A DNA stretch of 64,000 nucleotides from Candidatus Enterousia sp. (GCA_045133095.1 JBGUTP010000004.1:67058-131057); one strand, 5' to 3'. Shown: positions 13,940 to 59,989, numbered from the stretch's first letter. Numbers and translations: made by a program. Notes: generated by a model from the letters alone, not told the origin.

Positions 13940-14941
13940 ATGTCTAAAGTAAGAGTAGCAATTAATGGTTTCGGCCGTATCGGACGCTTGGTTTTGCGTG
14001 CGGCATTGGAATCTAAACGTGACGACATCGAATTTGTTGCAGTTAATGATTTGGCACCAGCAGAACAAAATGCATATTTGTTAAAATACGATTCTGTACA
14101 CGGTAATTTACCAATGGATGTAAAACTGGATGGGGAATACATTATTGTGGGCGACCAAAAAATTAAGTGCATCGCAGAACGCGACCCGGCAAAATTGCCT
14201 TGGGGGGAATTGAATATTGATATCGTTATGGAATGTACCGGTATCTTTACCGCCGCAGATAAGGCGCGTCTTCACCTGGATGCGGGCGCAAAGCGCGTTC
14301 TGGTTTCGGCACCATCGGCGGGCGCAGATAAAACAATCGTATTTGGCGTAAACCAGGATACATTGACATCTGAAGATTTGATTGTTTCAAACGCATCTTG
14401 CACAACTAATTGCCTGGCACCGGTGGTAAAGGTCCTGAATGATAAATTTGGGGTCGTTTCTGGGTGGATGACAACCGTACACGCATACACCGGCGACCAA
14501 CAACTGCTGGACAAAAATCACAAGGATTTCCGTCGCGCACGCGCGGCTAACCTGTCTATGATTCCAACAAGCACAGGCGCAGCAAAGGCGATTGGGTTGG
14601 TGCTGCCGGAACTGGCGGGAAAGTTAGATGGCATGGCAATTCGCGTTCCAACACCTGATGTGTCCGTGGTGGAATTGGTTGCTAATTTGGAAAAGAACGC
14701 AACAGTCGAAGAAGTTAACGCCGCAATGCGCGCCGCAGAATCTAAGACTTTTGGATACAATGATTTACCATTGGTTTCAATTGACTTTACACACGATGCG
14801 CACAGTTCTGTGTTTGACGCAGGACAAACCAAGGTGTTGGGTGACAAACTGGTTCATGTGACGGCATGGTATGATAACGAATGGGGTTTCTCGAACCGCA
14901 TGGGGGATACAGCCGTTGCAATGGGAAAACTGATAAAATAA
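13940..14941 (+). CDS. gap: Type I glyceraldehyde-3-phosphate dehydrogenase
   Basis: [26 protein letters not shown]. Confidence 0.98.
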
Positions 14942-15043
14942 AAAAACAAGCCCGCCAATCGGCGGGTTTTATAATATTTTTACTTTTAATAAAAAAAGTT
15001 CTTGCATTTATTCCAAGTACAGTATATTATGTACAACGCTTTA

Positions 15044-15120
15044 GGGGTTGTAGCTCAGCTGGTTAGAGCGTCTGCCTGTCACGCAGAAGGTCGCGGGTTC
15101 GAGCCCCGTCAATCCCGCCA
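15044..15120 (+). tRNA. tRNA-Asp(GTC)
   Basis: Cloverleaf GGGGTTGTAGCTCAG...CTGTCAC...GGTTCGAG...CCA. Confidence 0.97.
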
Positions 15121-15217
15121 GTATTTACACCGTCATCATGACGGTGTTTTTTCTTGTTTACTGTTAAAAATAATACTTTATAATTACCATTATAGACTAA
15201 TCAAAAAGGAGAAACAC

Positions 15218-15655
15218 ATGAAATTCAAACTGTTAGCAATTGGTGCATGCACATTGGCATTGGCGGCGTGTGGCGACAATGGTCAAAACCCAAACGCACT
15301 TAAGGGAATAAGTTTTGTATCTGCCCAGCCAGGCGTTGATATCACACTGACATTCGACCCACAGGACATGCGTGTATATGGAAAAGTGGTCAATCAATAC
15401 AATGGTGGATATACCGCAGATGGCGACAATATTAAATTTGAAGGTTTTGCATCGACTATGATGATGGGCGCACCAGAAGCCATGGAAACCGAAGCAGAAT
15501 ATTTCCAGTTTATGCCAACCGTCGAAACATACGAACTTAGTGACGGGAAATTAACCCTGGTGGGCGAAAACGGCAAAGAAATTATCTTTACCCAGGTGGA
15601 AGTTACCCCGACAGAAACAGTGACTGCAGAAGAAGCGGAAGTTGTTACGGAATAA
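15218..15655 (+). CDS. META-domain (HslJ-like) lipoprotein
   Basis: Lipobox LAAC, GFASTMMM motif, AAGGAG RBS. Confidence 0.85.
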   Translation: MKFKLLAIGACTLALAACGDNGQNPNALKGISFVSAQPGVDITLTFDPQDMRVYGKVVNQYNGGYTADGDNIKFEGFASTMMMGAPEAMETEAEYFQFMPTVETYELSDGKLTLVGENGKEIIFTQVEVTPTETVTAEEAEVVTE

Positions 15656-15732
15656 ATTCGTTGTTATTTACTTGACAACTAATGTTAATCCAGTTATAAT
15701 TTGCCGGCGTTCACATTGAACACGGCAGTTTT

Positions 15733-15808
15733 GGCCCCATCGTCTAGAGGCCTAGGACACCGCCCTTTCAAGGCGAGAACACCGGTTCGAATCCGGTTGG
15801 GGCTGCCA
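15733..15808 (+). tRNA. tRNA-Glu(TTC)
   Basis: GGCCCCATCGTCTAGAGG...CTTTCAA...GGTTCGAATCC...CCA. Confidence 0.97.
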
Positions 15809-15958
15809 AAATAAACAAATCGGGTTTTATACCCGATTTTTCTTTGTTTTCCAATACTTTCAGCAGTTCGAAGGTTAGGTGTTGAAAATAGAGACCGTTT
15901 CACACATTTACGAACTTTTACAAAGAAAAAGGTTAGAAATCTAACCTTTTTCTTTGTT
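15803..15958 (+). repeat. Right arm, copy 1 (about 155 bp; homologous to 16733-16886)
   Basis: Shared AATACTTTCA, AGTTCG, CACATTTACGAACTTTTA and the AAGAAAAAGGTTAGA-NN-TCTAACCTTTTTCTT hairpin. Confidence 0.85.
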
Positions 15959-15971
15959 TTATCGTGTAATA

Positions 15972-16577
15972 TTAAAATCTGTACCCTGCGCCGATAATCA
16001 AATCAAAGCCAGACATACGCTCGCTTACATTATCAACACTAAGGCCGTTTATTTCTTTTATGTCCAGTTCAGTTGTTATTTTATAACTTAAATTCGCATT
16101 TAAATAGAAATTGTTAGTCATATATTGTCTGCAACCTAATCCAAAACTAAATACCGCACCAGATGTTTTAACTTCTCCATCCATACTTGCATATCCAGCA
16201 GCAAGAGAAACATAAGGTTTAAAATTAGAATTACGCATTAAATAAATATCAAATTCTGCATCAATTTCATTCAGTTTTGATGTAGTTGTGTCAGTACCAG
16301 AAACTTTTGTTTTTGTTTGGCTTAAAGATGGGTTAATAGAGATTGCAACAACATCATCAATTTCTATACCCAATACAAAATCGCCGACATTGTTATCATT
16401 AAAATCAAAACTATCTGACTTAACCACTGTTCCTGTATCATCTTTTAACTTTACATTGTATGAACTGGCTAAACTCAAATTATAACCAACAAATGGTTTA
16501 ATATGATAAGAATCAGATTCAGCAAAAGCACTTACTGGTAAAGCAATCAAAACAGGTAAAGCATATAATAATTTCAT
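15972..16577 (-). CDS. Outer membrane beta-barrel protein (OmpA-like TM/porin family); cassette 1
   Basis: Signal peptide, KPYVSLAAGY, C-terminal IGAGYRF; AT-rich. Confidence 0.85.
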   Translation of the reverse strand: MKLLYALPVLIALPVSAFAESDSYHIKPFVGYNLSLASSYNVKLKDDTGTVVKSDSFDFNDNNVGDFVLGIEIDDVVAISINPSLSQTKTKVSGTDTTTSKLNEIDAEFDIYLMRNSNFKPYVSLAAGYASMDGEVKTSGAVFSFGLGCRQYMTNNFYLNANLSYKITTELDIKEINGLSVDNVSERMSGFDLIIGAGYRF

Positions 16578-16636
16578 TGCATCTCCTTTTTTACACATTA
16601 TGACTATATTCCAATCTATTATTTTTTTCAATGATA

Positions 16637-16886
16637 TTATAAGGTTAAAAACATATTCAGAAACAATTTTATTTCTTTCCCAAACAACAACAAATCACGC
16701 ATATCATTAGCTCGTGAATTGCACAGATGGCCCTGCCAAAATAAATAAAACCGCATTTTTGCGGTTTTTTGATTGGATTTCTAATACTTTCACAAGTTCG
16801 TAAGTTAGATGTCAAAAACAACTACCATTTCCCACATTTACGAACTTTTAAAAAGAAAAAGGTTAGATTTCTAACCTTTTTCTTGA
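16637..16886 (+). repeat. Composite junction: left arm, core, right arm copy 2
   Basis: 16666-16741 aligns without gaps to 18412-18487 (about 62/76 identical by hand count); 16733-16886 aligns to 15803-15958. Confidence 0.85.
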
Positions 16887-16911
16887 TTCGAATTTATTGT
16901 GGGAGCTTGAA

Positions 16912-17457
16912 TTATTTTTCTAATATTTTTTCCAATATATATTCGTGATGCCATTCGCCGTCAATAAATGCAGTGTCATGCAAAATACCGACAATTTCAT
17001 AACCTTGCTTTAACAGATTGCCAAGCGAACGCGTATTTTTATGTCGGATACTAGATTCCAGTTTGTGTACATTATTTTCAATCGCCCACTTTTCTATTAT
17101 TTGCTTGAACTTAGTCCCCAAACCATTCGAAGTGTATTTTTCTAATATGGTTGTTCCTGTGGTGGCCACGCGTCCCGAATATGGATGCCCAACTTGCTTT
17201 TTATTTATGCTGGCGGTGCCAATCAAAGTGTTGCCATCCCATGCACCCAAGAACAAATTGTTTGGATTTTCATAAATCTGGATAGATTTTTCGCGGTCTT
17301 TTTTCGGTTGACCAGCATACTGACATGTCCATTTTGCCCCAGGACCACGAGTGAATTTTTCAAGGTACTTCATCATATCTTCATAATCCTTACCACGAAT
17401 ACGGCGAATAGTAACAACTTTACCGTTTTTTAATTTGAATTTGATGGCACGATTCAT
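16912..17457 (-). CDS. GNAT family N-acetyltransferase; cassette 2
   Basis: ILEKYTSNGLGT acetyl-CoA motif, NTRSLGNLLKQGY, RimJ/L-like C-terminus. Confidence 0.85.
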   Translation of the reverse strand: MNRAIKFKLKNGKVVTIRRIRGKDYEDMMKYLEKFTRGPGAKWTCQYAGQPKKDREKSIQIYENPNNLFLGAWDGNTLIGTASINKKQVGHPYSGRVATTGTTILEKYTSNGLGTKFKQIIEKWAIENNVHKLESSIRHKNTRSLGNLLKQGYEIVGILHDTAFIDGEWHHEYILEKILEK

Positions 17458-17491
17458 GATATTTCCTTTTTATTGGTCAAGAATAATTGTA

Positions 17492-17572
17492 TCATAGTTT
17501 ATTCAAAAACACCTTAACATTTTTCCCAAACTGCAGTAAATCGTACAGGCCATTAGTTCACCCCTGTAAATA
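17492..17572 (+). repeat. Degenerate left arm with internal deletion and worn core
   Basis: TTTTCCCAAACTGCAGTAAATC...CATTAGTTCA-CCCCTGTAAA matches the other left arms minus about 15 nt. Confidence 0.65.
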
Positions 17573-17626
17573 AAAACAGAAAAAGTATTGACAAATATAC
17601 ATATTTGTCTTATTTTTTGTAAAAAA

Positions 17627-18412
17627 ATGAAACTTGCAGAACCTAAAATTTTATATAAAGATATTGTCATCAATAACAACAATATTGATGACTTTTTGAA
17701 TACCCCACATGGCGGTGCATATCATTATGACACAAACACTATAATATTGTATAACTATATTATATCCCAAGATATATTAGATGCCAAAAAAGCCGCAGAG
17801 GCGAAATCTATCACACATACTGCGATTGAACATCGCCCCAGCACAATCGTGCATGAAAAGCGACACTGGCACAACAGAACAATCGTACCACGATTCCAGG
17901 ACTTTTGTTTGATGAATTATTATCAGGAAGTTTCGTTGCAGTGTCTTGACGAAATTTCTGCAATAACCGCCGATATTTTGTACACAACACCAAAGTATAA
18001 AAAACTTGGCATATGCCAGGCAACTGTACTTTGTTCGATGTTAGAAGCAACAGAAAGATTCAAGAATAGTTGTTTGGATGAATATCTAAATCGTTTTATC
18101 GACTGGATATCGGAAAGTTATCATTTGGATGTGGAATTATTAACTGTTGAAAAAGCCTACGTATTTTTGCAACAGCTGCAGGCTACATATAAAGATGCCC
18201 CACAAAAGCTGTTCGACAAACGTTTTCATGATGCTGTCAAAGGCTATTTCACATTTGACGACTATTGTATTTTGAACGATAAGATATCAGATGCTTCAAT
18301 GGATGCATGGGGCCTTATGTTACAAAATTTCGCACAAATAAGGCAAAAAGCCAACGCCAAGACACACAAAATGATAAACACAATAATAAAATCAAAAACC
18401 TTCCAAAAATGA
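17627..18412 (+). CDS. Hypothetical protein with HExxH motif (possible zinc metallopeptidase); cassette 3
   Basis: STIVHEKRH and a downstream Glu (LDEISA). Confidence 0.6.
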   Translation: MKLAEPKILYKDIVINNNNIDDFLNTPHGGAYHYDTNTIILYNYIISQDILDAKKAAEAKSITHTAIEHRPSTIVHEKRHWHNRTIVPRFQDFCLMNYYQEVSLQCLDEISAITADILYTTPKYKKLGICQATVLCSMLEATERFKNSCLDEYLNRFIDWISESYHLDVELLTVEKAYVFLQQLQATYKDAPQKLFDKRFHDAVKGYFTFDDYCILNDKISDASMDAWGLMLQNFAQIRQKANAKTHKMINTIIKSKTFQK

Positions 18413-18487
18413 TTTTATTTCTTTTCCAAACTGCAACAAATCATGAATAAACTCAGTTCGTGAATTGCACAGTATGTCCTGCCAAAA
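18392..18487 (+). repeat. Left arm and core at the distal end of the array
   Basis: TCGTGAATTGCACAG...CCTGCCAAAA followed by the hairpin AAAACACCC-GTTT-GGGTGTTTT. Confidence 0.85.
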
Positions 18488-18702
18488 ATCCAAAACACCC
18501 GTTTGGGTGTTTTTTTATTTTTGTTAAAGCAGACCCAACCGGATGCGCCATAGTGCCGACATTGGTGCGTATGCGCCATACAAGGAGTAAAAATAAAAAA
18601 AATTACAGTATTATCTTGTTTAATAGCACTTAGTGCGTGCGACAGAATAAACTTTTCCAAAAAAAACACCCGGCGCATGCCGGGGAGGGATTTAACGTAA
18701 GA

Positions 18703-19092
18703 CTACCATCTTTTAACGTCAGTCGAAACGTTATGCTTTTCAATAAATACAGTCAAACGTTCCAATACTTCACAGGCATCCTGTTCATGTTCCTGAAGTT
18801 TTTTATCCTGGTGAGTGTAAAGTTTAAGATTATCATAATCCCAATTCGTAGAGATTTCCAAGGCTTGACCATAAGACAATAAACCATAGCCCGGAATAAC
18901 AATCGCGTATTTAATATCATTGCCGTCTTCATCAACCTTTTGTAAGTGCGTCAGTGCCTCTATCTGAGTTATACACTGGTTTATATTATCCGTATCAGAC
19001 AACACCTTGGTGTCACCAACAATGTTATTGTCCGCCACATCTTCACAGGCACATAACGCCAACAACACCGGAAAAATACGCAGCAACCTCAT
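18703..19092 (-). CDS. Hypothetical lipoprotein
   Basis: Lipobox LALCAC, AAGGAG RBS. Confidence 0.75.
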   Translation of the reverse strand: MRLLRIFPVLLALCACEDVADNNIVGDTKVLSDTDNINQCITQIEALTHLQKVDEDGNDIKYAIVIPGYGLLSYGQALEISTNWDYDNLKLYTHQDKKLQEHEQDACEVLERLTVFIEKHNVSTDVKRW

Positions 19093-19260
19093 AATTACTC
19101 CTTTGTTTCATGCATTCAATTATACCATACTAACAAATATCTGCATTGATTTTTTTAGCGTTTTGTGTTATAGTACACAGTGAATCGATGACGACGTTTG
19201 GGTCGTCTTTTTTTATTTCACCCTGCCCCACGGCGGGGATTTTTTATTAAGGACAATTAT

Positions 19261-19797
19261 ATGATTACTGAATTACACGACAGACAAAATAACAGCATTG
19301 AAAAAACAATGAACGAAGAAGCAGGATATGTGGATAATCCACGCCTGATAGACCAACCAACTAATTTCGGAATAACACAACCGACACTGGATAAATACAA
19401 CCAAAAACACCCGACACTAAACTTTCCCAAGAAAGTAATTGATATAAAACGAGAACACGCAAAACAGATATATAAAGAAGACTATTATGACGGGCGCAAA
19501 ATCTGGGAAATTAAAAACCCCAGGATTGCACACGCCGTGTTTGATATGGGCGTAATGAGCAATTTTAACAATGTCGTTAAAACCGTTCAAAAAACACTGA
19601 ACAATTTTCAGCGTGCGAATTTAATAGTCGATGGCAAAATGGGCAACAAAACAATCGGCGCACTGAACAGCGTACCAGATGACAAAATCAACGAATTTAT
19701 GAACCTGTTGAAACGCAACAGGATTAAATATTTGCGCAGTTTATCAGGTTGGGACAAGTTCGGTCGCGGTTGGGTCAGTCGCACAAACAGATATTAA
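19261..19797 (+). CDS. Glycoside hydrolase family 108 lysozyme with peptidoglycan-binding C-terminus
   Basis: EAGYVDNP...TNFGIT, VFDMGV, VDGKMGNKT, FGRGWVSR. Confidence 0.85.
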   Translation: MITELHDRQNNSIEKTMNEEAGYVDNPRLIDQPTNFGITQPTLDKYNQKHPTLNFPKKVIDIKREHAKQIYKEDYYDGRKIWEIKNPRIAHAVFDMGVMSNFNNVVKTVQKTLNNFQRANLIVDGKMGNKTIGALNSVPDDKINEFMNLLKRNRIKYLRSLSGWDKFGRGWVSRTNRY

Positions 19798-19877
19798 AAA
19801 CATGGACAAAAACTTGACAAAACGCCGTATCTGAACTATGTTAATCGCAGCAATACGTCATAACAAGGATTGTAGAT

Positions 19878-20174
19878 ATGGCAACTTTTAAACAAATTAA
19901 ACCACACGAACATCAGCAGATGATGGAAACGATTAACAAAATGAAAGACCGTGCAACAAGTTCATTGGTTGCAGGATGCTCTTGCGTTTCAATGGGTGCG
20001 GTCGCTGTTGTCATAGCAACAATCAACGCATGTCGCGACGAAGCCGGTCTGGCGGCAATTTGTGCATTATCAGGGGTCTTTTCAGCATTTATCGGGGCAT
20101 GGAATATAAAGAATTCATTTGTCTGTAACAAGGAACTGAATTCGATAGAAAAAATGCTGAACAAGCAAAGATAA
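19878..20174 (+). CDS. Two-TM hypothetical protein
   Basis: Own promoter, AAGGA RBS, two hydrophobic helices; ends NKQR. Confidence 0.7.
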   Translation: MATFKQIKPHEHQQMMETINKMKDRATSSLVAGCSCVSMGAVAVVIATINACRDEAGLAAICALSGVFSAFIGAWNIKNSFVCNKELNSIEKMLNKQR

Positions 20175-20185
20175 AAAAACCGCCC

Positions 20186-21430
20186 TTAACTGTGGCGGTT
20201 TTTACTGTTCTGGCGGGGAATAAACAATGTACGACACACCCAACCCCACAGCACCAGCACACACCCTATCAATATCAAATAATAACGCAGCCAATCATAG
20301 CCGCCATAAACACCAACGTATATCAGACCAACAAAGCCAACCCACCGACCCAAAAACAGTGCAAAATCACGCAAGACAAAATATTCTATACGCGTGTCGC
20401 GCGTCACACAACGCGAACGGGAAAGTTTGTACATGCTGATGTTGCTTGATTGTTCAATAAAAATTATGGCGGTCGCATAAACCAAATTATAAATCAAGAA
20501 TGTCACAGGTGTCGCACGCCATACAAAAAACAACATCGATAACAAGACCAGAAAAACACAAATCTGAAGCAAGATGCGAATGGTCTTGTCGCGACTGATA
20601 TAGCGAAACACCCAACACGTCAACACCGAGCATATGGCAAACACCGTCGTCAATATACCAAGATTCAAATCAGAATGAAAAATGTAAACCGTGTACATCG
20701 TTATAACCGTCCCCAACAACCCTAACCCAAAACCACGCAGAACTTCTGATAAAAACAATTTACGAACAACCGGAAAACGACGCATACAACGATAAAAGCC
20801 AATAAAATCTGTACCACGGGAATCACGATGGCGACTGGGGGTCAACATAAAGGACAGTCCAAATTCCACGCACGACAACAATAACAGCGCAAAGGCAACA
20901 TCCGTATAAGAACCAGTGTCAATAAAACACCCCAAAATCACAGGCGCCAGAATTTTAGCCAAATAACCAATCGCATTATTTGTTCCAACAAAATGCCCCA
21001 TAGATTTACCTGACACCTTGTCCGCAGTTATAACATGACGTGGCAGATAGTACATAGCCGCACTTAGCCCATAAAGCAGCCCCAGCGGGACGACATAATT
21101 GACCGCATCCGCACCCAGAAAAATAATCGCCGACAAAACCGCCATTTTAGGCAACACACTTAACCCAAAGACAGTCGCCTTGTTATGACGCTTTACCCAA
21201 CCCGCAAACAAAAAGAAACCCGCACACGTCGCGACATATTCAAATAATTTATAGGTAGATATTGATACTATCTCGTTCACAGAAATGTGCATGACAAATG
21301 AAATAAAGAACGCACCCATAAATAAATCAGAAACCGTGCGCAAGGCACCGAATATTATCAACAACCATAAATCACGTGACAACTTATTCGACGACATGGA
21401 TAAAAATTTCTCTCTGCTGTATTTGAACAT
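20186..21430 (-). CDS. MFS transporter
   Basis: 414 aa with about 12 hydrophobic segments. Confidence 0.85.
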   Translation of the reverse strand: MFKYSREKFLSMSSNKLSRDLWLLIIFGALRTVSDLFMGAFFISFVMHISVNEIVSISTYKLFEYVATCAGFFLFAGWVKRHNKATVFGLSVLPKMAVLSAIIFLGADAVNYVVPLGLLYGLSAAMYYLPRHVITADKVSGKSMGHFVGTNNAIGYLAKILAPVILGCFIDTGSYTDVAFALLLLSCVEFGLSFMLTPSRHRDSRGTDFIGFYRCMRRFPVVRKLFLSEVLRGFGLGLLGTVITMYTVYIFHSDLNLGILTTVFAICSVLTCWVFRYISRDKTIRILLQICVFLVLLSMLFFVWRATPVTFLIYNLVYATAIIFIEQSSNISMYKLSRSRCVTRDTRIEYFVLRDFALFLGRWVGFVGLIYVGVYGGYDWLRYYLILIGCVLVLWGWVCRTLFIPRQNSKNRHS

Positions 21431-22010: not shown

Positions 22011-22095
<85 letters not shown>

Positions 22096-22112: not shown

Positions 22113-22271
22113 GCGGATAACAATTGAGCCATAGGCGACTACGCAGCAACGCGAAGTGGAACGGAACGCGAAAGCGTGACGGTCAAATTGGTAGACGCGC
22201 TGGATTTAGGTTCCATGCGCAACCCATAGGAGTTCGAGTCTCCTTACCCGCACCATTTTCCATAGTTTTTG
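22113..22271 (+). pseudogene. Tandem degenerate tRNA-Leu copy with a hairpin-rich insertion in the 5' D-arm region
   Basis: 22185-22271 nearly identical to 22023-22111; 5' GCGGATA is separated from it by about 65 nt. Confidence 0.8.
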
Positions 22272-33942: not shown

Positions 33943-35529
33943 TTATTCCGCACGTGTAAATGCGCCACCGTCCAACATGTCACGAACGGCGAAATGCTTT
34001 ACTTTTTTGGCAGATGTTGACGGTAATTCTTCTTCGGTAATGGCAAAGTGTTTTACCCACTTGTACTGCGCAATTGCCAAATTAGACTTCTTTAACAACA
34101 TCGCGGTGCGTTCAACGGTCGTGCCAGGTTTTACCTGAAATACAGCAAAAGGAACCGTTTTATCCTTAATCACGTATTCAAAGACCGCCGCATTCAATAT
34201 TTCATCGTTCTGCATGTACAGGTCTTCCAGTTCGTCAGGATAAACATTTTTACCACTGTCCAATACGATTACTTGTTTTTGCCGACCCTTGACCGTCAGA
34301 CGACCGTATTTGTCCAGGCATCCGATGTCACCTGTTTTAAACCAGCCATTTTCAAACGCTTCGGCGTTGGCACTGTCGTTTTCCAGATAGCCCGGCATTA
34401 CCATATTCCCGCGCACCCAGATTTCACCAATGCCGTGTTTGTCAGGGTTATGAATCTGAATCTCGTTCCCCAGCAGTGGACCTGCATAGTACATGGAACC
34501 ATTCGAACGACGAAACGCAAAGTTAAAGTTCGCAGGTCCTGTGGTTTCTGTTAAACCATAGCAGTCGCCAACAACAAAACCCATGCTTTCATAAAATTTA
34601 CGAATAGATGGTTTTAATGTCGCACCCGCAGATACCAAAACCTTGGTATTGCCACCAAAGGCATCATGAACAGGTTTTGTAACCTTGTTCACCAGACCAC
34701 CCAAACCAATTGCACGAAGTATCTTGCGCATAGATACAATTATACGCATCAATGTCCAAACATGTTTTTCGCGCGCACTGTCCACAATCTTTTTATAAAA
34801 GACTTCCCAAATGCGGGGAACGGCGGGGATAACTTCGGGCTTATACTGTTTAAAGTCTTTGATAAATTCTTGGGGTTTTAATACAGGTTGCAATAACAAT
34901 TTGCCCTGAAGTGAAACAGGAACAATTATATTAATTACAACACCATATATGTGATACAGCGGTAAAAATCCGTAAAATGTATAGCCAGGATGAATCACAT
35001 CTTTATAAAATTGCGCACCATCATGCAACGACAACAAATTTTCATGTGTCAAACCTACAACCTTGGGATTACCGGTGGAACCAGATGTAAAGGACAACTG
35101 GGCAATGTCACCACGTTCAGTGTCCGCCATAACAAATTCTGTTTCATCAGTATCGTCAATATTTTCAATATCAAACATTTCACATGGCGCATTATCTATG
35201 AACATTGATTTTTGCGCCAAAACTAATTTGCAGTCTGTGCGTTTCATCATGTTAATGTGTTCAGTGGTGTTTAAACCAGTGTCCAACATTAACGCACGTG
35301 CGCCTTGGGATGTAATGGCAAAGTACGAACGCAAAAAGTCCGGTGTATTACCAGACAAAATCGCAACAGTGTCGCCCTTTTTAATACCAAAACGTTTCGC
35401 CAACAGCACCGCACGCTGCTTTACCTTCTTTAACAAATCTGCATAGGTTTCATTCTGACGCACAAAGAAAATACTGTCTTTGTTGCGAGAACATACATCT
35501 TGCAGCATATCATATATGTTTTTCATCAT
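33943..35529 (-). CDS. Long-chain fatty acid--CoA ligase / AMP-binding protein
   Basis: FTSGSTGNPK, YGLTET, WFKTGDIG, SGKNVYP. Confidence 0.92.
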   Translation of the reverse strand: MMKNIYDMLQDVCSRNKDSIFFVRQNETYADLLKKVKQRAVLLAKRFGIKKGDTVAILSGNTPDFLRSYFAITSQGARALMLDTGLNTTEHINMMKRTDCKLVLAQKSMFIDNAPCEMFDIENIDDTDETEFVMADTERGDIAQLSFTSGSTGNPKVVGLTHENLLSLHDGAQFYKDVIHPGYTFYGFLPLYHIYGVVINIIVPVSLQGKLLLQPVLKPQEFIKDFKQYKPEVIPAVPRIWEVFYKKIVDSAREKHVWTLMRIIVSMRKILRAIGLGGLVNKVTKPVHDAFGGNTKVLVSAGATLKPSIRKFYESMGFVVGDCYGLTETTGPANFNFAFRRSNGSMYYAGPLLGNEIQIHNPDKHGIGEIWVRGNMVMPGYLENDSANAEAFENGWFKTGDIGCLDKYGRLTVKGRQKQVIVLDSGKNVYPDELEDLYMQNDEILNAAVFEYVIKDKTVPFAVFQVKPGTTVERTAMLLKKSNLAIAQYKWVKHFAITEEELPSTSAKKVKHFAVRDMLDGGAFTRAE

Positions 35530-50369: not shown

Positions 50370-50544
50370 ATTTGATTTTTATGGCGGAAGCGCGGGATTG
50401 TAATTCCCACCACCTGCGGTGGCGGACCCCTTTCGCCTGCGGCTCGAACCCCACGCAACTGCGTTGCTCTAATGGGGGGGCTCATCCTACCATCGCAACT
50501 TAAAAATAAAATCGGCATTAAGCCGATTTGATTTTTATGGCGGA
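50370..50544 (-). repeat. tRNA-linked repeat: 19-bp duplication of the tRNA-Ser 3' end enclosing a GC-rich hairpin module
   Basis: ATTTGATTTTTATGGCGGA at 50370 and 50526. Confidence 0.8.
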
Positions 50545-50627
50545 TGGTGAGGGATTCGAACCCCCGGAAGGGTTGCCCCTTCAACGGTTTTCAAGACCGC
50601 CGCATTCGACCGCTCTGCCAACCATCC
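50538..50627 (-). tRNA. tRNA-Ser(TGA)
   Basis: GGATGGTTGGCAGAGCGG...CTTGAAA, long variable arm, GGTTCGAATCC...CCA. Confidence 0.96.
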
Positions 50628-59913: not shown

Positions 59914-59989
59914 GCCGGTTTAGCTCAGCTGGTAGAGCGGCTGATTTGTAATCAGTAGGTCGTTGGTTCAAGTCCGACAACCGGCACCA
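59914..59989 (+). tRNA. tRNA-Thr(TGT)
   Basis: GCCGGTTTAGCTCAG...TTTGTAA...GGTTCAAGTCC...CCA. Confidence 0.97.

Follow-up and report, generated by a model that had tools for sequence, protein, structure and literature searches.

The window analyzed here is a stretch of 64,000 nt from a Candidatus Enterousia sp. genome (GCA_045133095.1, JBGUTP010000004.1:67058–131057). At 15733–18520, it contains a tRNA-Glu(UUC) gene followed by an array of three cassettes, with distances of 930, 829 and 917 bp from core to core. The layout of a unit in the window is core, R arm, cargo gene, L arm, core, the core being a short copy of the tRNA 3' end and the arms being non-coding. Coordinates refer to the window; G000 denotes the genome under study, the other G-numbers denote genomes of relatives, and L-numbers denote fetched loci. 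The features of the array and of the region beyond it are as follows:

15733–15808, plus strand: tRNA-Glu(UUC), the anchor (attB), identified with ARAGORN and Rfam
15803–15811, plus: core 1, the left edge of cassette 1, consisting of CTGCCA (the final 6 nt of the tRNA) and a run of A
15809–15960, plus: R arm of cassette 1, with terminator hairpin T1 (15817–15839), a conserved box, the inverted repeat AGTTCG...CGAACT (about 15865–15916) and the bidirectional terminator T2 (15920–15957)
15972–16577, minus: cargo 1, an outer-membrane beta-barrel protein (OMP; PF13505)
16654–16741, plus: L arm of cassette 1, closing in core 2 (16733–16741)
16739–16890, plus: R arm of cassette 2, with T1 (16747–16768), a 50-nt inverted repeat with a perfect 10-bp stem (16796–16845) and T2 (16853–16884)
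16912–17457, minus: cargo 2, a GNAT acetyltransferase
17500–17570, plus: worn L arm and worn core CCCTGTAAA (17562), with about 17 nt of the L end gone
17627–18412, plus: cargo 3, a 261-aa protein with an HExxH motif and no Pfam or NCBIfam family
18400–18487, plus: L arm of cassette 3, closing in core 3 (18479–18487)
18488–18600, plus: distal module, with a terminator (18492–18513) followed by an inverted partial tRNA-Glu 3' end (18520–18547)
18703–20174, no strand assigned: probable older cassettes without recognisable arms, encoding a 129-aa protein (minus), a GH108 + PG_binding_3 lysozyme (19258–19797, plus) and a 98-aa membrane protein

Cores and arms of the array

The tRNA gene is preceded by a perfect sigma-70-like promoter (15672–15700). 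The core string CTGCCAAAA was found on the plus strand at 15803, 16733 and 18479, and the worn core CCCTGTAAA starts at 17562, in agreement with the positions named in the original prediction, which a model had made from the sequence. An additional, unrelated copy of CTGCCAAAA is present on the minus strand at 34005. The four matches in the window compare with 0.97 expected, and 3 of 100 shuffled sequences attained four. In a repeat search, the two R arms (15798–15954 and 16728–16884) were aligned over 157 nt with 78% identity, and the segments comprising L, core and terminator (16658–16770 and 18404–18516) were aligned over 113 nt with 73% identity. The L family comprises three 60-nt copies, at 16654, 17500 and 18400, with 70–73% identity. 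The predicted arm lengths (about 155 bp for R and about 75–100 bp for L) and identity (about 80%) were therefore right.

A terminator-like hairpin follows each of the three intact cores, and altogether the region has nine terminator-like sites, compared to 2.0 expected. The R arm closes in a second terminator (T2), which is bidirectional. The motif AGTTCGTRA occurs three times in the L-core-R junction, in direct orientation in L and in direct as well as inverted orientation in R. The sequence of the 11-pair stem of the R arm is conserved, with almost no compensatory changes among the arms at tRNA-Glu; the stem variants behind other tRNAs retain the pairing. At gathering thresholds, Rfam recognised only tRNAs in the window and no family for the arms, and a permissive Rfam scan of loci from four relatives yielded only sub-threshold chance matches for the non-coding modules.

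The third unit deviates from the common layout in that cargo 3 is not preceded by an R arm; a promoter-like site is located at 17588–17616. A comparably worn junction lies ahead of a homologous cargo gene of the HExxH family in G004. We also considered an outward promoter in L that would serve the minus-strand cargo genes. This idea was dropped because promoter-like sites are no more common than in shuffled sequences (13 versus 14.0) and none lies in the conserved part of L. As a separate observation, the inverted tRNA-Glu 3'-end copy at 18520–18547, immediately past the last terminator of the array, is 28 nt long and 79% complementary.

Variability of the cassettes within the genus and within the species

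The tRNA-Glu locus was fetched from 19 genomes of the same genus. The number of L/R-bounded units ranged from none detected to three or more, and the cargo families recurred at other positions and with other neighbours. With the profiles, no L/R-bounded units were detected in G003, G006, G009, G013, G014 and G017, two of which (G006 and G013) still bear diverged R-like arms. The relatives thus do not carry the same three genes in a fixed order, an outcome that the original prediction had named as fatal to it. The prediction was also right that the array is not a recent tandem duplication, since cargo and order differ between species and strains. In G023, the sequence that follows the array in the window adjoins tRNA-Glu directly, and the three cassettes therefore represent a clean insertion.

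Altogether, 99 unique core-to-core cassettes were collected from 101 array loci. Their lengths range from 507 to 2797 bp, with a median of 1001 bp, and 72 of them have a single open reading frame (ORF) of at least 60 aa. The 132 cassette ORFs form 86 families, 64 of which are singletons, and their orientation is biased but not fixed (84 minus, 48 plus). About 45 of the 132 ORFs were scanned for families. The cargo in this set is of the accessory type and includes several GNAT families, nucleotidyltransferases, HAD, GDSL and alpha/beta hydrolases, a histidine phosphatase, an adenine deaminase, peptidases S51 and M15, a protein kinase, NERD and EEP nucleases, an ABC-F ATPase and many proteins without a family.

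The boundaries of the cassettes map to the core. For cassettes common to two genomes (88–97% identity), the alignment begins 4–12 nt before the final A of CTGCCA and stops 0–8 nt after it. Internal alignment ends (at least 88% identity) lay no more than 15 nt from a core in both partners in 28 of 130 cases and in at least one partner in 45 of 130, although positions this close to a core account for 1% of the sequence. One cassette (95.9% identity over 1148 bp) has a different left neighbour in each of three genomes: tRNA-Glu(CUC) in L142, a left arm of unrelated sequence in L070 and a standard L arm in L094. The array thus shows the features of tandem elements: the target gene is intact, a direct repeat of its 3' end stands at the unit boundaries, these boundaries coincide with the repeat across contexts, and an empty or alternative site exists.

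To look within the species, we compared contigs of public runs from four studies with the region 14900–19900. A 35.8-kb contig from another study (run X6) has flanks that differ from the window at 1 of 913 nt and 11 of 3168 nt, and between 15812 and 16733 it has 171 other letters that replace cassette 1. Hence, the content of the first slot is exchanged within the species, with core-to-core precision. In loose contig ends from the fourth study (run X7), cassette 1 is replaced by a small non-coding module known from G004. Two short contigs of run X4, with joints from 15802 to 16733 (21 letters on the shorter side) and from 15811 to 18502 (28 letters), hint at the loss of cassette 1 alone and of all three cassettes, respectively; their flanks are too short, and they are not counted as evidence. 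Both the mapping of the boundaries to the core and the conspecific replacement of a unit between cores bear out the stacked integration at a tRNA 3' end that had been predicted.

Distribution of the arms

The genome assembly has 1.08 Mb in 33 contigs and is 97% complete. It encodes a permuted transfer-messenger RNA (tmRNA), a form associated with Alphaproteobacteria. Candidatus Enterousia belongs to the order Rs-D84, described as having genomes of about 1 Mb or less; genomes of the genus itself, an animal-gut dweller, are given as about 0.8–1.1 Mb (PMC12306168). In genome-wide profile searches, the L arm was found at the three array sites only (E 2e-27 to 4e-16; next match E 0.19). The R arm was found at four sites, two in the array and two at a locus with a tRNA-Asn 3' fragment, where both stand immediately after a copy of the tRNA-Asn end. 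The arms thus keep to tRNA ends instead of being dispersed over the genome: each L or R copy lies behind a tRNA 3' end or a copy of one, contrary to the untethered distribution that would have spoken against the prediction.

In a sample of 150 species genomes of the order (threshold E 1e-6, up to six candidates scored per genome), the L arm was present in 48 of the 107 other Enterousia species genomes and in none of the 43 genomes from 21 other genera. The exact L-end pattern occurs in 84 stretches of public contigs of metagenome-assembled genomes, the titles of which read Candidatus Enterousia, Alphaproteobacteria, proteobacterium and, once, "uncultured bacterium". The isolate names, where a source is given, refer to rumen, gut or faeces of farm animals. 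On a single contig (loci L136 and L090), eight L arms stand behind one tRNA-Glu. The predicted anchoring at tRNA-Glu holds for the UUC gene of the window and proved too narrow for the genus: arrays are anchored at tRNA-Glu(CUC) in some genomes (L087, L130, L142), and related arms occur behind tRNA-Asn, tRNA-Gln, tRNA-Tyr and tRNA-Val. The core tracks the identity of the tRNA, being CCGAGCCA at tRNA-Asn and a tRNA-Gln end behind an L-like arm. Viral contigs had no exact matches to either the L-end or the R pattern; there is thus no sign of a phage-borne form, exact matches only having been sought.

Large serine recombinases next to R-type arms

No recombinase gene was found within the array of the window. 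We used phmmer to compare the 13 recombinases of the genome with 2832 ORFs of the 101 array loci. No tyrosine integrase was detected among these ORFs save one XerC-like core gene, which lies upstream of tRNA-Asp in two overlapping loci of one genome (G016/L102). Small resolvase-like genes in the loci of G002, G007, G009 and L073 were taken as resident genes near the distal flank. The same search revealed one large serine recombinase (LSR) adjoining tRNA-Glu, in G022. This protein has the domains Resolvase, Recombinase and zinc-ribbon, and its gene belongs to a 7.5-kb element with an 11-nt repeat of the tRNA end at both flanks, followed by an R arm and a cassette. Orthologues with 59–93% identity were found at tRNA-Glu in five more genomes, and paralogues were found at the tRNAs for Arg, Thr, Gln, Tyr and Glu(CUC). 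In 24 of 29 loci of this type, the LSR gene adjoins a tRNA gene with its 3' end, and its reading frame enters the tRNA.

A second LSR family, the G078 type, is 23–26% identical to the G022 type and is present in 45 of 151 genomes and in 11 of 22 genera, adjoining a tRNA 3' end in 26 of 30 loci. In 21 of these 30 loci, a 49–50-nt GTTCG...CGAAC inverted repeat, the centre of the R arm, lies between the tRNA and the LSR gene, and 6 of the 30 match the R profile. In G078, tRNA-Glu is followed successively by core, terminator, inverted repeat and LSR gene; hence, a recombinase gene does stand beside such arms elsewhere, as the original prediction demanded. A standard L arm lies at the start of another G078 contig. 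In G085, LSR elements alternate with an L/R cassette in one array, with the same core between all of them, and in G150, a 13.3-kb element of the G078 type at tRNA-Tyr has a 10-nt repeat of the tRNA end at its bounds. An L-like arm ending in a tRNA-Gln end lies near an LSR gene in G103, with a weak match (E 0.002). The best NCBIfam matches of the Enterousia LSRs are XisF and CcrB, below the cut-off.

Thus, proteins with LSR domains in a target-proximal position are encoded in relatives (G022 and G078) and not in the window. Since R-type arms stand beside LSR genes, the R arm appears to be the tRNA-proximal end of autonomous LSR elements, and the cassettes, which share this arm, look like their non-autonomous relatives. 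The prediction that the recombinase is encoded elsewhere stands insofar as none lies in the array, and a likely family can now be named; the family is not proven. As a side observation, an LSR gene in G103 (C3:1–2100; L202/L229) lies between inverted copies of a segment comprising a tRNA-Gln end, a terminator and an R-like arm. The tRNA is joined to one of these copies and an L-like arm to the other, an arrangement that may be an inversion product of the enzyme.

A model for the array and its alternatives

We interpret the array as a stack of non-autonomous cassettes at tRNA-Glu that are moved by an LSR acting in trans, and we give this reading as a whole, including the enzyme, a probability of roughly 0.55. 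According to this model, three small cassettes would have been inserted successively at the extreme 3' end of tRNA-Glu. Each unit would possess its own attachment site, divided on integration into the R arm, which would provide the tRNA with a fresh terminator, a 50-nt inverted repeat and a second terminator, and the L arm of about 90 nt, closing in a copy of the final bases of the tRNA. In the free circle, L, core and R would be contiguous and would form an attP-like site of about 240 bp. An exchange of this site with the tRNA end or with a junction already present would lead to the gain, loss or swap of one unit, with the tRNA remaining intact. The LSR would be supplied by larger elements in other Enterousia species that have the same core and the same tRNA-proximal arm, and the units would pass from cell to cell by some route of transfer. 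There is no such LSR at tRNA-Glu in this genome, so that the array would now be a passive store that changes via exchange between strains. Site-specific exchange at the core is the firmest part of the model, and we consider it highly probable; for the agent, a tRNA-end-targeting LSR from larger sister elements acting in trans, we see about an even chance.

Several observations weigh against this model. The G078-type LSR has no match in this genome (E 1e-30), and the single LSR of the genome is located at a tRNA-Thr fragment just beyond the end of the window. An LSR gene lies beside tRNA-Glu in only about 8 of the 107 sampled genomes of the genus, and four genomes with such a gene (G072, G109, G105, G135) have no L arm, so that LSRs and arrays do not co-occur. 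Apart from G022, remnants of LSR genes were detected inside the arrays in 1 of 101 loci. No LSR element could be shown to close in a standard L arm at its far end (the contig breaks off within the G078 element, and the end of the G150 element does not match the L profile), nor was a second core found within 13–17 kb in six LSR elements at tRNA-Gln. Among the contig joints, all were of the sequence-skipping kind and none was a circle junction or back-joint, although in assembled contigs rare forms are invisible. Furthermore, the combined length of L and R (about 240 bp) far exceeds that of a typical LSR attP. Finally, the hexamer that precedes CTGCCA is mosaic: ATGGCC is found in 86 of 170 unique L ends and TATGTC in 16, and 35 of the ends lack the core. 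The hexamers differ in 5 of about 11 near-identical cassette pairs (copies 92–97% identical), namely ATGGCC versus TATGTC in three pairs and ATGGCC/ATGGGG and ATAGCC/ATGCCC in the others. This mosaic fits two exchange points 6 nt apart better than the 2-nt crossover of a serine recombinase; it is also conceivable that the hexamer is cut by two enzymes, one on each side.

Because of these misfits of the LSR and the mosaic hexamer, two alternatives were retained. The same cassettes and the same exchange could depend on a tyrosine recombinase in trans, either a P4-like integrase with an arm-binding domain or an enzyme tolerant of heterology. The genome encodes four P4-like integrases (Arm-DNA-bind_3 and Phage_integrase domains) as well as XerC and XerD, the triple AGTTCGTRA layout of the junction resembles arm-type sites, a site of 240 bp fits an attP of the lambda type, and the hexamer beside CTGCCA looks like an overlap or coupling region. 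However, the 2832 ORFs contained no homologue apart from the XerC-like gene of G016/L102, and the AGTTCGTRA motif is not clustered near any integrase gene. In addition, the integrase-bearing islands of the genome use tRNA repeats of 45–49 nt, the island at tRNA-Asn, as read, has different arm repeats, and a candidate dif site is unlike the core. Taken together, we regard a tyrosine recombinase as an unlikely agent.

We judge it similarly improbable that no dedicated recombinase is involved and that the junctions serve as portable homology for RecA-dependent swaps after transformation or delivery by vesicles or transducing particles. The junctions, up to eight per array, are 70–90% identical over about 240 bp, alignments end away from the core in both partners in 85 of 130 cases, T1 terminator alleles and the pre-core hexamer are reshuffled among the arms, and arrays persist in 48 of 107 species even though LSRs at tRNA-Glu are rare. 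These observations speak for homologous exchange, which nevertheless does not account for the first acquisition of both arms by a new gene. Three further observations argue against it: the cassette found in three contexts is joined to unrelated left flanks that share just about 6–12 nt with each other, the direct junction of the post-array sequence with the tRNA in G023, and the core that follows the identity of the tRNA at the Asn, Gln and Tyr sites. The region could also be immobile, either an intergenic region duplicated locally in tandem or a group of conserved modules with a regulatory or small-RNA role beside resident genes. The arms hold terminators, so that their conservation could partly be functional. 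Yet cargo and order vary between species and strains, the arms match no Rfam family and they are absent from the 21 other genera sampled. The comparative data already contradict an immobile region, to which we assign hardly any probability. The stack of cassettes mobilised in trans by an LSR remains the model that we prefer.

Cargo genes and the outer variable region

The cargo families of the window recur in relatives. The OMP family of cargo 1 is also a cassette family in G007 and L122, the GNAT family of cargo 2 is cassette cargo in G019, G001 and G015 as well, and the HExxH family of cargo 3 is also found in G004. In the ESM Atlas, cargo 3 matched unnamed clusters only, apart from a faint lead to Peptidase_M78. 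The predicted extent of the array, 15733–18520, describes the three units correctly, but the variable region probably extends further, to about 20180. The family of the 129-aa protein encoded beyond the array sits within an R...L cassette in G019. The conserved flank begins at 20186 with the gene for a 414-aa membrane protein that may be MFS-like. Within the variable region, the lysozyme gene and the following gene for the 98-aa membrane protein (19258–20174) resemble an endolysin and holin pair.

Other tRNA-associated elements

Many tRNA genes of the genome have an exact 17–20-nt copy of their own 3' end (37 nt at Leu-UAG) about 100–170 nt downstream. Such copies were seen at the tRNAs for His, Leu(UAG), Glu(CUC), Arg(ACG), Pro(GGG), Leu(CAA) and Gly(CCC), and where compared (His, Leu-CAA, Pro), they start just past the GGTTCGA of the T-loop. 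Two elements downstream of tRNA genes lie in the window, one at 50375–50529 behind tRNA-Ser(UGA) (50538–50627, minus) and the other the 37-nt repeat at 22219–22255 behind tRNA-Leu(UAG) (22011–22095); others lie on the G000 contigs C4, C7, C21 and C26. A module family of about 150–190 nt, here termed type A, stands behind the tRNAs for His, Leu(CAA), Pro(GGG), Lys(CUU) and Ser(UGA) and, in relatives, behind those for Glu and Asp. It has no Rfam match, and it substitutes for the OMP cassette in run X7 and apparently in run X6. At tRNA-His and tRNA-Leu(CAA), its start is, by eye, an inverted degenerate copy of the local tRNA end. These tRNA-downstream modules look like mini-elements with another crossover point, in the T-loop, at several tRNAs.

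Two larger islands were also observed. The island at tRNA-Asn (C4:1–10700, L021, and the end of C19, L022) is bounded by a 48-nt tRNA fragment and contains a P4-like integrase gene, TATTCTAT repeats on both sides and a type I restriction-modification system. Just outside this island, the gene for a non-discriminating aspartyl-tRNA(Asn) synthetase is the sole gene between two copies of the tRNA-Asn end with an R-like arm. The gene for tRNA-Thr(UGU) (59914–59989) has an exact 49-nt repeat of its 3' part 6.8 kb downstream (C4:133789–133837), beyond the end of the window. A P4-like integrase gene (C4:132461–133639) lies between the tRNA and the repeat, and the LSR gene (C4:133800–135371) lies beyond, overlapping the repeat. 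In view of the repeat and the integrase, the last 4 kb of the window belong to another island.

At several junctions, a two-hairpin insert of about 65–70 nt, with a CTATGAG start and a GCGAAAC or GTGAAAC end, is located between CTGCCA and the run of A. It directly follows the L arm and core in L046 (G001), L047 (G011), L045 (G024), L136, L120 and others, and a related piece stands behind tRNA-Glu in G003; the insert has no Rfam match. Xer/dif modules were considered as well and rejected: the best dif-like site of the genome, a 28-nt palindrome of the XerC/XerD type on the minus strand of contig C5 at about 3208, has two mismatches to the generic motif and does not resemble the core.

Comparison with known systems

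By mechanism, the nearest described analogues of the array are the ssrA islands of Dehalococcoides and the composite islands of the staphylococcal cassette chromosome (SCC). The ssrA islands, attributed to the serine recombinase DsiB, stand in tandem behind an essential small-RNA gene, the tmRNA gene, and each is bounded by a short direct repeat of the 3' end of that gene (McMurdie et al., 2011, PMC3146451). They are described there as multi-kb elements, 16 of them with a six-gene integration module of their own; islands without this module are reported as well, and the authors suggest that these are cis-mobilizable. As in the Enterousia LSR elements, the DsiB gene is located at attL and extends into the target's 3' end, according to the same source (PMC3146451). 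Unlike the ssrA islands, the Enterousia arrays target tRNA genes, consist mostly of single-gene units of about 1 kb without a recombinase gene, possess long conserved arms (about 90 and 155 nt) and are present in about half of the species of the genus. In SCC, cassettes of 3–60 kb are arranged in tandem at the 3' end of one conserved gene, rlmH, and units without a recombinase gene have the same flanking repeats and can be moved by the enzyme of a neighbour. The stacking of repeat-flanked, recombinase-free units at one 3' end is thus common to both systems, but SCC lacks long conserved arms that bear terminators. The LSRs of SCC are the Ccr proteins. Composite and pseudo-SCC islands of staphylococci, with SCCmec among them, have been described (PMC11470126).

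By ecology, the closest parallel is the tycheposon islands of Prochlorococcus, hosts with streamlined genomes and few other routes of gene transfer (Hackl et al., bioRxiv 10.1101/2020.12.28.424599). As described in that source, tycheposons integrate into tRNA genes, older elements are pushed outward, and the islands contain partial tRNAs and degenerate remnants; the elements encode tyrosine recombinases or LSRs, combine cargo with modules for integration and replication that span 1 to 4 kb, and have attachment sites that measure about 40 nt (10.1101/2020.12.28.424599). The Enterousia units differ in being integrase-free, in their size of about 1 kb, in a core of 6–12 nt and in their conserved arms. 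The hallmark integration and replication modules of tycheposons were not found among the roughly 45 of 132 cassette ORFs that were scanned, which were of cargo-type families only.

By scale and function, integrons and integrase-less attC clusters are the closest match. Integron cassettes are mostly single-gene units of about 0.5–1.5 kb with diverse accessory or unknown cargo, and each has its own recombination site; sedentary chromosomal integrons exist, as do integrase-less arrays, the clusters of attC sites lacking integron integrases (CALINs). The likeness, however, is one of function and scale. None of the eight tyrosine recombinases of the genome reaches the integron integrase models (the best score, 117 bits compared to a cut-off of 265, belongs to XerD), and therefore, the array is not an integron. 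It is not Xer-dependent either. The prediction had correctly excluded intI. Unlike integrons, the arrays have neither IntI nor attI, are anchored at a tRNA gene and receive terminators from each cassette. In contrast to attC, a structure-defined site of 60–140 nt, the Enterousia junction is a fixed sequence of 240 bp with a tRNA-derived core and, by inspection, does not resemble attC. Cis-mobilizable elements (CIMEs) are a further comparison; the literature on such elements includes ICEberg 2.0 (PMC6323972) and a review of IMEs (PMC5704250). These units, flanked by att sites and lacking recombination and transfer genes, lie beside or between autonomous relatives that use the same site; they are decayed integrative and conjugative elements (ICEs), found singly or in pairs and formed by accretion at ICE attachment sites. 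The Enterousia units, in contrast, form a stock of dozens of distinct one-gene units that spans the lineage. The novelty lies in the combination of a tRNA-end anchor, one-gene units, conserved arms of 90 and 155 nt that bear terminators, up to eight units per array and presence in about half of the sampled species of a genus, and our literature search found no published description of this array system.

Implications for reduced genomes

The arrays bear on the question of how reduced genomes keep a flexible gene pool. In about half of the sampled species, one tRNA end is the filing site for dozens of one-gene units, which turn over within the species as well. With the sites, the candidate enzymes and polymorphic natural populations now named, the question is directly testable. 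If the enzyme is an LSR, the arrays would amount to a natural arrangement in which many small attP-like cassettes share a single short attB. The integron principle would then have been invented a second time, independently, and the system would be a source of new tRNA-end-specific serine integrases with defined sites. A broader interpretation, which we put forward tentatively and consider somewhat short of an even chance, is that Enterousia and, judging by the related arms, other bacteria with small genomes run an integron-like gene-capture platform with a different enzyme and a different anchor. The joint claim is that a transient, tRNA-end-specific LSR files self-terminating one-gene cassettes behind tRNA-Glu and that the attachment sites of the cassettes co-evolve with the last ten bases of the tRNA. 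If this interpretation is correct, tiny genomes without plasmids or conjugation would hold a shared, exchangeable pool of accessory genes.

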